Below are positions 3,043-6,438 of a DNA stretch of 64,000 bases, piece after piece. How positions within the stretch are numbered: position 1 is the first letter of the stretch; each line of letters starts with the position of its first letter. The DNA is taken from NCBI GenBank assembly GCA_963693365.1, contig CAVNZM010000002.1, positions 11,092,328 through 11,156,327 on the forward strand, given 5' to 3'. A program made the position numbers and the translations under genes. This DNA comes from Amoebidium appalachense (taxonomy: Eukaryota; Protista; Ichthyosporea). The notes under the pieces were generated by a model, which was not told the origin of the DNA, ran no database searches, and was given only the letters and a program-made list of their open reading frames with translations.

Positions 3043-6000
3043 ATGGCCTTCTGTCGAAGGGGGCCACGCTCCCCCTACATAGAGGTCATACCGCCCACTG
3101 AGGCAGAGGGCGAGCTAGCAGAATGCTACGCACACGTTAGTGCCCCAGACGGCAGCGTTGATAACATAATGAAGATCCACTCTCTGAATCCTCAAGGGAT
3201 GGTGCAGCATAACGATTTCTACAAGCAGATAATGCGCGATCCCAGCCCGCTGAGCAGGGTGGAGAGGGAGATTGTGGGCGTGGCTGTGTCGGTGTTCAAC
3301 CAATGTTCGTACTGACCTGCACACCATGGCTCTGGCCTGCGTTCCCTGCTGCCGCCAGAGAGAAAGCATGTCGCGGACGAGGTGTGTGTGCGCGTGCTTT
3401 CTCTCTCTCTCTCTCTCTCTCTCTCTCTCTCTCTCTCTCTCTCTCTCTCTCTCTCTCTCTCTCTCTCTCTCTCTCTCTCTCTCTCTCTCTCTCTCTCTCT
3501 CTCTCTCTCTCTCTCTCTCTCTCTCTCTCTCTCTCTCTCTCCCTCCCTCCCTCCCTCTCCCTCTCTCTCTCTCTCTCTCTGTCTGTCTCTCTCTCGCTCT
3601 CTCTCTCTTGTATGTGTGTATGTGTTTGTGCACATGTGTTGAAACGCATTCACGTCCGTGCGCATGCGTAGAGGTGGTGCATGCATGCATGCACCATTTA
3701 TGGATTCATGTGATGTGCAAATACTTGTGTGTGGACCCTATTCCCATCAATACGTCCCTCCTGTTCACTCGCCCATTCTCTCGACACCTGTAGGCTAAAG
3801 CCGCTTTTGTCTCTCTCTATTTCTGCCTCCCCCCGGCCATTTTCCCTCCCTCACTCCCTCCCTCCCTCCCTCCGTCCGCCCTCCCCTCCCCCCCCCCCCC
3901 CCCCCCCTCCCTCCCTCCCTCCCTGTCTTTTGTTACTCTCCCTTACAGAGTACAATATGCTCAGCATCCTTCTGTCGCTTTGTGTCTTTCCCTGAGTTTC
4001 CTGGTTTTTCTTTTTTGGAATACACATAGACAACCATGCGCATACACAGTCGTCCTCCCCCCCCCCCTCCCCCCCCCCCCCCCTCACCCCGCGGCTCTCA
4101 TTCTCGGGTGACTACACACACACACACACACACACACACACACACACACACACACACACACACACACACACACACACACACACACACCCCTGTCTCTTTT
4201 ACCCTCCCTCACACACACACGCATACACACACGCACTCTCTCTCTCCCTCTCAGCCCCCTCCACCCCCGCCCCCTCCCCCTTCCCCTCCCTTCTCTCCCT
4301 CTCTCTCTCTCTCTCCCCCTCTCCCCTCTCCCCTTACCTACATCCAGACACTACACCTTCGCTCCCTCCCTTTCACACACATTAGCATACACGCACAGTG
4401 TCTCCCTTTCTCTCTCAGCCCTTTCTCTCTCAGTGCACACAGCGCCACACAGGCTCTCTCAATTTCACGTCTCTCTCTCAGCACACACATACACACACTT
4501 TGTTAATACGCACAACCCACCCCTACGTTACTTAGCAACTGATTTCTCTATCATCGTATTCTCCTTGCCACCCTCGCCAATCACATAGGAGCAAAGCTTG
4601 GCCGAAACCTTATGCCAAACACCCACATATGGGGCAGCCCCCCCCCCCCCCCCCCCCCCCCCCCCCTCCCCCCCCTCCCCTCCCCCTTTCCGTAGCACCG
4701 TGGTTCCTCACATTTTTGTGCCTTTCCAAGTGTACTGCATATGACATTTTGAACTCCCCTCCCCTCCCCATTCTGCCCCCCCCCTTCCCCCCGCCCCCTT
4801 CTCGGTCTATTTGTGTGTGTTTGTGTGTGTCTGCGTATCTGTTCGTCTCTGTGTCTTTGTATCTGTGTACTTGTGCAATCTGGTGTTGTGTGCTTTCTTG
4901 TCAATTGCTGTTTGGCGGTGCCTGCTTAACGGCCCCAACCACACATTCCCTTCAACCTATTTTAATTCATCTCAGCAGGTCTAACATATTTTGACAACTC
5001 CATCTCAGCCAAACACCATGTAAGGGTGTGAGGGAATGGCGGCGGGGTCGGGGGCAGTGGTCGTGGTGTTTTTTGGGGGCATTGGGGGGGTCTTTGGGGG
5101 GGGGGGGGGGGGGGGGGGGGTGACTTATGTGGTCGTCCTCCCCCAATCAATCCCATCATCAAATCACCCAACATCACTATCCAGACCCTATTTTTCCCCC
5201 CCCTGCTGTCCCCCTCCCCCCCCCCCTGATGATGGGCTCTGTTCAAGTGTCTTCTGCCTGCACGCTAAAATGTTTTGATTTTGGATTTCCCACGTTTGTG
5301 ACGTTTTATTGTTACTCTTTGTTGTCTCCTCCATATTTTCAACCCTCTAACGCATACATCCCCCCCCCCCCCCCCCCCCCCCCCCGCCGTTTTCCGTTCA
5401 GGTTATGGCCGGAGACCACAGCAGCCTGACCCCCCGTGAGGCTGCCATGGTCACATTTGCCCTCAAACTCACCCACAGCCCCTCAGACGTCACAAAGGAC
5501 GACGTGGTTGCCCTGAAAAACATTGGTACAACCCTTCACCCCCAACACACACACACACACACACACACACACACACACACACACACACACACACACACAC
5601 ACACACACACACACACACACACACACACACACACACACACACACACACACGGGTACTGTGAATCACTTGGGTTCGACCAAATTAGGAAGAAGCACTTTCC
5701 CATACTCTGACCTCATTATGACGTAGAACTGATCGATATGGTGATTACCTTGTGGAATTCCGACATGGGCAGATTATCGCCACCACACATGCATAGGGTA
5801 GTGGTAGTCGGTCCCTAGCGCACAGATTTAGTATACCAAAGCTTTAATTCTCTCCCCTCCCCTGACTCGTAGCATCCCCATCACTATGACCGTGCACACA
5901 CACACACACACACAAGCACGCACACACACACACACACACACACACACACACACACACACACACACACACACACACACACACACACACACACACACACACA

Positions 6001-6181
6001 CACACACACACACACACACACACACACACACACACACACACACACACACACACACACAGGGCTCAATGACCGTGAGGTTCTAGACCTAGTGCAAGCAACG
6101 GCCTACTTCAACTACTCCAACCGATTGGTGGCCGGCCTGGGCATTCCCCTGGGTGTGGGGGAGGGGGCACCCGGCCAGTAA
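3043..6181 (+). CDS. AhpD/carboxymuconolactone-decarboxylase-family peroxidase with an in-frame UGA read as selenocysteine (CxxU); exons 3043-3381, 5402-5525, 6060-6181; 194 aa
   Basis: GT-AG introns join in phase. Translation: ...LSRVEREIVGVAVSVFNQCSY[TGA]PAHHGSGLR...LTPREAAMVTFALKLTHSPSDVTKDDVVALKNIGLNDREVLDLVQATAYFNYSNRLVAGLG...*. Shows the AhpD E-x11-C-x2-C-x3-H spacing and the C-terminal FN-x2-NR motif of peroxidase-related AhpD proteins. Confidence 0.9.
5226..5360 (+). repeat. Intronic dispersed repeat copy (CTGATGATGGGCTCT... family)
   Basis: Highly similar to the reverse complement of 13529-13660; the 5' end also matches 57401-57440 (-). Confidence 0.8.
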
Positions 6182-6322
6182 TTTCCCGTAATTTTAGATG
6201 CTAGGTTAGGGTTTTTAGGATGTAACTGTATAGGCCTCCGCTTTTGTGAACGATAGCGGTGTACTTTGATAGACTAACACGTACTAGTTTGCACGGAGTG
6301 TAGGGTGACTTGTGGACCAGTC

Positions 6323-6381
6323 GGCCAAATGATGACGTCAGCAGCTGCAACCCGATTGGGCGGCTGGTTGACTGACTTGCC
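6323..6381 (+). promoter_or_regulatory. Eukaryotic SECIS element (type II) in the 3'UTR of the AhpD-like gene
   Basis: Helix I GGCCAA/TTGCC; core ATGAC (6332-6336) and TGAC (6373-6376); helix II GTCAGCAGCTG/CGGCTGGTTGAC (11 bp, one bulge); unpaired AA (6349-6350); apical mini-stem CCC-GATT-GGG. Folded by hand. Confidence 0.85.
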
Positions 6382-6432
6382 TTTTATGGTAGGGATAGCC
6401 CCACAAACCCTGCCGAGCCGGTGCAGGTGAGA

Positions 6433-6438
6433 AATAAA
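6433..6438 (+). terminator. Putative polyadenylation signal AATAAA of the AhpD-like gene
   Basis: AATAAA about 50 nt downstream of the SECIS, which would place the SECIS inside the mRNA. Confidence 0.5.

Follow-up and report, generated by a model that had tools for sequence, protein, structure and literature searches.

Selenoproteins of the AhpD-like type, with selenocysteine (Sec, U) in a CxxU motif, have been predicted from Sargasso Sea and Global Ocean Sampling (GOS) data in two reports (Zhang 2005, PMC1088965; Zhang & Gladyshev 2008, PMC2398784). Table 1 of PMC13188914 gives the family as a predicted selenoprotein with TIGR01926, and Table 4 of PMC7435645 places AhpD-like and CMD proteins in its prokaryote column only. 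Here we describe a gene of Amoebidium appalachense, located in a stretch of 64,000 nucleotides (nt) of contig CAVNZM010000002.1 (the window), that resembles this bacterial type (TIGR01926/COG2128, CxxU) in profile, CxxU position and length, and differs from it in being eukaryotic, with two introns and a type II Sec insertion sequence (SECIS)-like element in the 3′ untranslated region (UTR). The most likely account of the locus is a transcribed, twice-spliced eukaryotic TIGR01926 gene, whose in-frame UGA is read as Sec by way of the 3′ UTR hairpin and whose predicted product is a helical redox enzyme for peroxides or for the disulfide of a partner. Judged from its sequence, the product is very probably a selenoprotein.

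The gene comprises three exons, between the ATG at 3043 and the final stop TAA at 6179–6181, and encodes 194 amino acids (Table 1). In the frame of this ATG, codon 91 is TGA, beyond which the frame stays open to the GT donor after 3381. The codon falls within the motif E76-x11-C88-S-Y-U91-x3-H95, the tyrosine being Y90. All or part of the stretch is contained in 20 of the 24 sequencing runs listed. A single contig of 1,320 nt from run X13 matches window positions 2952–3383 with zero mismatches and then continues into exon 2 sequence; the same contig matches 6059–6790, with exon 2 ending just before this match, and its total length equals that of the three-exon model exactly. The second junction is also present, with evidence from the exon 3 side, in X8, a run of a second study whose guessed label is DNA. 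The DNA runs X1 and X2, from two studies, span the TGA with no letter differing; X14 covers 2952–3292 only and stops short of it. Runs X15–X20 (shares of about 0.05) were not used, and the metatranscriptome X18 gave no match.

Splicing at the GT at 3309, around the TGA, is not seen in the X13 contig, with the proviso that contigs drop rare variants and reveal neither transcript ends nor rare isoforms. The TGA in X13, X1 and X2, taken with the spliced joints, therefore excludes an assembly error and TGA-skipping splicing for the assembled form. The sequence-only reading of this locus had placed the TGA at residue 91 within the E76/C88/H95 spacing, continued the frame through it into two further exons of a 194-residue protein, and expected reads and transcripts to keep the codon; the coordinates, the contig junctions and the runs agree with it on each count. 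The closest full-length relatives are bacterial, yet runs from three studies carry the TGA, the transcript contigs show two spliceosomal introns spliced out, the GC content at third codon positions (0.68) equals that of the host sideroflexin gene and the neighbours are eukaryotic genes, leaving an assembly error or bacterial contaminant a negligible probability. The AATAAA that the same reading had set after the SECIS is present at 6433; it is not the sole transcript end, since contigs extend past it to 6790 (X13) and 6632 (X8).

Table 1 Features of the Amoebidium gene and other genes of the window.
Feature	Position	Strand	Remarks
5′ leader	2952–3042	+	Spanned by contigs of X13 and X14; two in-frame upstream ATGs in weak context
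Coding exon 1	3043–3381	+	113 codons; short Arg-rich N-terminus and AhpD helix hairpin (E76, C88, Y90, U91, H95); TIGR01926 positions 2–93
In-frame TGA, predicted Sec91 (CxxU)	3313–3315	+	Present in X13, X1 and X2
Intron 1	3382–5401	+	GT..AG; rich in microsatellites; loose end of X13 contig matches exon 2 start
Coding exon 2	5402–5525	+	TIGR01926 positions 107–143; 46% identity to P0009
Intron 2	5526–6059	+	GT..AG; acceptor abuts long CA repeat; loose ends of X13 and X8 contigs match exon 2 end
Exon 3, coding part with TAA	6060–6181	+	TIGR01926 positions 146–174; 64% identity to P0009
3′ UTR	6182–6790	+	Extent as far as the X13 contig goes
Type II eukaryotic SECIS-like element	6323–6381	+	AUGA 6332–6335, AA 6349–6350, GA 6374–6375
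Proteasome Rpn7	22000–27673	+	
PALP-family (cysteine synthase-like) gene	46400–49016	−	
Sideroflexin, intronless	51898–52896	+	
RasGEF gene	55500–62400	−	

As the start, 3043 was preferred over the upstream ATGs near 2969 and 2980 for its context and for its match with P0004, the closest relative (66% identical), which shares the N-terminal M-A-x-C-R-R-G-P-R with the window protein. The 5′ leader also holds a 34-nt element with a near-palindromic core (2974–3007), at which the DNA contigs break. Its depth is raised several-fold in X1 and X2, which suggests that copies exist elsewhere in the genome; the window has no second one. A shared regulatory motif and the end of a repeat are both conceivable. 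At the other end of the gene, a CA repeat of approximately 160 nt (5896–6059), with no pyrimidine tract, stands right before the acceptor AG of exon 3, and this acceptor is used in two studies.

TIGR01926 is the best NCBIfam match of each exon, in profile order. Scored one by one, exons 1 to 3 reach 58.6, 26.2 and 28.7 bits; the curated cut-off of 81.8 bits is meant for a whole-length match, and the sum of the separate exon scores is larger. Exon 1 also matches PF02627 (CMD; 33 bits, cut-off 23). The profile of the Mycobacterium tuberculosis-type AhpD, TIGR00777, gives 12.9 bits (E 0.07) on exon 1 and nothing on exons 2 and 3, against a cut-off of 192, and the selenoprotein profile NF041238 (AhpD_rel_CFYUT) gives a partial match of 26 bits where 175 bits over approximately 357 positions are needed. 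The Pfam sestrin profile PF04636 matches weakly and below its cut-off (E 0.002). By its profile matches, the window protein is best assigned to the TIGR01926 family (‘peroxidase-related enzyme’, ‘AhpD-like 1’); its earlier assignment to the AhpD family stands in the sense of AhpD-like and not of the M. tuberculosis type. Identity to bacterial Cys forms reaches up to 56% across the whole protein (residues 12–194). The spacing of E76, C88, Y90, U91 and H95 is that of the five relay residues of PA0269 (Glu36/Cys48/Tyr50/Cys51/His55), which is described as a weak peroxidase in PMC3141380.

Fold comparisons were made with a bacterial stand-in, P0005, in place of the window protein. The P0005 model is all-helical (pLDDT 95.6), with TM-scores of 0.81–0.84 to Protein Data Bank entries 6K40 and 3C1L and approximately 0.68 to the debrominase Bmp8 (6OHJ, 6OHI); its sequence identity is 30–34% to the peroxidase-related structures (6K40, 3C1L, 2OYO) and 16–18% to Bmp8, and its match to sestrin is weak. 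The helical fold, as predicted for this stand-in, and the relay spacing of the window protein are found in Deinococcus radiodurans AhpD (6K40; DR_1765 in PMC6300522), Mlr4105 (3C1L) and PA0269 (2O4D), proteins that have Cys where the window gene has TGA and are approximately 20–34% identical to P0005. The M. tuberculosis AhpD is similar in its helix-hairpin motif (Glu118, Cys130, His132, Cys133, His137; PMC3141380) and is the origin of the mechanism proposed below, but differs in topology and subfamily, with a TM-score of 0.49 to the P0005 model. Sestrins (PF04636) are, as here, eukaryotic proteins with AhpD-like domains, but have approximately 360 residues in the structures compared. Sestrins are not known to be selenoproteins.

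The SECIS-like element lies 150 nt 3′ of the TAA, inside the transcript contigs. Between its AUGA and GA elements (Table 1), helix II pairs 6337–6348 with 6360–6372 (12 bp, one bulge), followed by the unpaired AA and a 2-bp mini-stem, an arrangement that fits the type II SECIS (AUGA_AA_GA with an upper stem) as described in PMC11227280. The element core folds at −16.5 kcal/mol (z −2.6, with boundaries picked after the element was seen). A pattern-plus-folding scanner, itself written with the element already in view, has this hairpin as its sole match on both strands of the 64 kb, and among 1,000 dinucleotide shuffles of the 609-nt UTR it finds any match in eight and a match as stable in one. 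In X12, a run with another organism label, there are 10 differences in 6182–6657, two of them in the stem (G-U to G-C, and a bulge shift), and helix II is kept (−20.7 versus −18.3 kcal/mol). Coding exon 3 has 0 differences in X12 versus 10 in the next 476 nt of the UTR, both small numbers. X12 is also without 32 nt at 6658–6689, well 3′ of the SECIS-like element.

Bacterial relatives were compared over 160 loci, 80 from metagenomes and 80 from GTDB, the GTDB query being built from the Planctomycetota group so that sampling favours it. The codon aligned to Sec91 is TGA in 93 loci and TGC or TGT in 67, with no other codon (TGA at 79 of the 80 metagenome loci and 14 of the 80 GTDB loci); the pairing of Cys and Sec at this position that the sequence-only reading looked for in homologues is thus present. 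The proteins of the loci are mostly of 180–200 residues. None of the 80 metagenome loci has introns, and bacterial-type sequence follows the codon throughout, which leaves no eukaryotic locus among them. In most bacterial TGA loci, the codon is directly followed by a conserved hairpin-like sequence that on sequence inspection is absent from the window gene; in RNAfold predictions of the 60 nt after the UGA, the bacterial hairpin is clear in only one of six loci.

The 35 top-scoring loci are all Cys forms with 47–56% identity, and the named ones are Planctomycetota, mostly Phycisphaerales. In a quick tree of 116 rows without a tested root (the window protein, 18 Cys proteins added to the set and, once short and near-identical sequences had been dropped, 97 proteins from the 160 loci), the window protein sits on a long branch (0.98) inside a group of 45 rows that includes 42 Planctomycetota (SH-aLRT 97). 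Nearly all of this Planctomycetota set has Cys, in contrast to the bacterial Sec forms. We infer that the gene was transferred from a lineage near Planctomycetota (Phycisphaerales); its Sec would then either be a new gain from Cys or come from a donor that already had Sec, with a swap of the SECIS from the bacterial in-frame position to the 3′ UTR. Locus L120 (4001–4600) is the lone TGA member inside the otherwise Cys Planctomycetota group, has its own complementary hairpin after the codon and groups with the truncated P0021 and P0057; it is a candidate for the Sec-bearing donor type.

Histidyl-tRNA synthetase and beta-eliminating lyase genes stand beside six and three, respectively, of 18 Planctomycetota-group loci, and were read as synteny and rejected as partners. 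At one of 36 loci (L021, 3569–4216, minus strand), a second CMD-family gene adjoins a bacterial TGA-type member amid redox-type genes. A scan of viral contigs gave no relative among 27 pattern matches.

Relatives in other eukaryotes appear truncated. Among 150 listed representatives, 39 end at CxY/F/W; those with N-terminal extensions were picked and the search was repeated with their alignment, giving 28 eukaryote-like proteins. Of these, 23 stop exactly at CxY and five run on into unrelated sequence, a pattern expected of an unspliced intron; there is no intact Cys form among them. Five of the 23 are named, from Diplonema japonicum (P0038), Stephanoeca diplocostata (P0136, annotated as a complete open reading frame (ORF)), Picomonas judraskeda (P0191) and Picozoa COSAG01 (P0168) and COSAG02 (P0235); Picozoa SAG31 (P0205) is one of the five that run on. 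Gene finders had been expected to truncate the protein at the TGA, and database relatives do end at that codon. In a tree of the N-terminal half (84 columns, 96 rows), the eukaryote-like rows form two groups (support 83 and 98) within a group that includes Planctomycetota (88), and their monophyly is not rejected (approximately unbiased test, P = 0.635).

In the picozoan-type group (P0157, P0168, P0191, P0196–P0209), an N-terminal segment is hydrophobic (17-residue hydropathy of approximately 2 in most of the proteins) and there is an insertion ahead of the first helix, features that suggest membrane anchoring. The window and Diplonema proteins have short basic N-terminal extensions without acidic residues, which are suggestive of mitochondrial import. 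The balance tips slightly towards an unrecognised eukaryotic selenoprotein family of helical AhpD fold in at least three distant lineages (animal relatives, diplonemids and Picozoa), derived from a planctomycete-related bacterium whose sampled members are almost all Cys, and perhaps mitochondrial. A new or little-known family had been proposed from the window alone; it is probably not limited to this organism, and no report of it in eukaryotes was found. Its closest bacterial kin carry Cys and not Sec.

Several points weigh against a Sec-decoding UGA in a redox enzyme of this kind. Beyond the after-the-fact design of the scanner, Rfam SECIS_1 scores the hairpin at 17 bits (E 1.4) against a gathering threshold of 35, and an Rfam scan of 1–12000 returns no SECIS at E ≤ 5, its matches being repeat-driven miRNA and snoRNA only. 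Helix I is short and weak (3 bp, in a constrained fold), and an unconstrained fold of 101 nt is unremarkable (z −1.37). The element had been called a canonical SECIS approximately 140 nt after the TAA; the pattern is present close to that distance, and the profile score, the short helix I and the 101-nt fold speak against ‘canonical’. The X12 changes are weak support, as 12 of the 16 letter pairs at the two sites are at least as stable as those of the window. The RNA status of X13 is a guess, for which both spliced joints argue. A scan of 130 of the 138 ORFs listed around the 36 bacterial loci shows no recurring peroxiredoxin, thioredoxin or selenium gene, and Table 1 of PMC13188914 marks no Sec member of the family as experimentally verified. 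Sec in the other eukaryotes is inferred from protein sequences, and transcriptomes of cultures may include contaminants.

The low Rfam score, and the annotation of relatives in databases as ending at this codon, would also be expected if the UGA were a true stop in a young pseudogene or a gene for a 90-residue fragment, with the hairpin there by chance. This is very improbable: the two exons after the UGA are both undamaged and conserved (Table 1) and X12 differs in the UTR and not in coding exon 3, the stop coincides with the very codon that reads TGA in 93 of the 160 bacterial loci, and the scanner matches the hairpin nowhere else. As a rule, a stop far before a junction exposes an mRNA to nonsense-mediated decay; here the stop is 66 nt 5′ of the first junction, and two studies nonetheless yielded spliced contigs, which, given that rule, counts against a true stop.

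Some protists reassign UGA, and Cys at codon 91, supplied by an altered code or by leaky read-through without selenium, would also complete a CxxC motif, as an alternative in which UGA is read as Cys or Trp. The last exon of Rpn7, however, ends in TGA at the same C-terminal residue as human Rpn7, where UGA thus behaves as an ordinary stop. Both TGG and TGC codons occur in the intronless sideroflexin gene, which has no internal TGA, and on the evidence of these two genes a general reassignment is unlikely. With a SECIS-pattern hairpin present as well, decoding as Cys or Trp is exceedingly unlikely. No tRNA gene was found in the window.

For the preferred Sec decoding, established SECIS biology makes it highly probable that SBP2 would bind the AUGA/GA kink-turn and eEFSec would deliver Sec-tRNA to codon 91. 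By analogy with AhpD enzymology, as set out in PMC3141380 and PMC6300522, Glu76 and His95 with a water molecule would form a proton relay. The Sec91 selenolate would attack ROOH or an oxidised peroxiredoxin, Cys88 would resolve the product with formation of a selenenyl-sulfide, and the enzyme would be re-reduced by a dithiol of the cell (thioredoxin or a lipoyl protein). In M. tuberculosis AhpD, the second Cys is reportedly the attacking residue. The passages on the relay in PMC3141380 list the five residues and assign no attacking Cys.

The analogy makes thiol/selenol oxidoreductase activity a strong expectation and favours a role in peroxide defence to a modest degree. A direct peroxidase, a peroxiredoxin adaptor and a dehalogenase are the candidate functions. 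Deiodinases are Sec-dependent dehalogenases, and the selenoprotein could instead be a reductive dehalogenase of the Bmp8 kind or have a sulfur or metalloid metabolite as its substrate: Bmp8 is among the fold matches of P0005, PA0269 is only a weak peroxidase, and the bacterial neighbourhoods offer no peroxiredoxin linkage. Such a job is rather doubtful, as the closest structures are the peroxidase-related ones, at higher identity than Bmp8, and the five-residue relay is intact.

The family is probably unreported in eukaryotes. The sequence-only reading held that AhpD is absent from the standard eukaryotic selenoprotein families, and this remained so in the eukaryotic lists available. The name ‘AhpD’ is absent from the main text of PMC3753652, PMC7539508, PMC6627142, PMC5330540, PMC11227280 and bioRxiv 10.1101/314781, and among the 186 candidates of the Seblastian supplement there is neither an AhpD, CMD or peroxidase name nor any of six CxYU motifs. 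No report of a eukaryotic AhpD-like selenoprotein was found in the literature searched, which for the algal paper comprised the main text, where its ‘Hypo’ family is undefined. Selenoproteins are present in the choanoflagellate Monosiga (PMC3753652). A precedent is provided by the eukaryotic AhpC selenoproteins (PMC3753652; AhpC_b in PMC7539508), a bacterial-type antioxidant that is patchy in protists and has a eukaryotic SECIS; theirs is a thioredoxin fold with a UxxC motif, which bears no relation to the helical fold of AhpD.

The window consists of eukaryotic DNA rich in microsatellites, and its other genes are given in Table 1. Its sideroflexin is represented in EukProt and is placed in a tree as sister (98/94) to a group that includes the named choanoflagellate sequences; on this one thinly sampled gene, the host is likely a unicellular animal relative. 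An intronless frame of 231 codons (30731–31426, minus strand) encodes a Cys-rich protein with a signal-peptide-like start, repeated Cys motifs and no Pfam match. The region 32000–34000, of low GC content (0.45), contains several ORFs of 117–139 codons with no Pfam match, and is possibly an inserted element.

New eukaryotic selenoprotein families are rare. Of the 42 algal families, approximately half contain a thioredoxin-like domain (PMC7539508), and the fold of the present protein would be unlike theirs in being unrelated to thioredoxin. If the enzyme is mitochondrial, lipoyl proteins could drive it. Since the family is only predicted even in bacteria, an expressed gene with a testable SECIS would offer a route to its first experimental confirmation. 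Five named eukaryotic entries end at the Sec codon, and annotation pipelines may need a profile for the family. If true, the Amoebidium gene would be a case of a gene crossing between incompatible SECIS systems, or of a change from Cys to Sec in eukaryotes.

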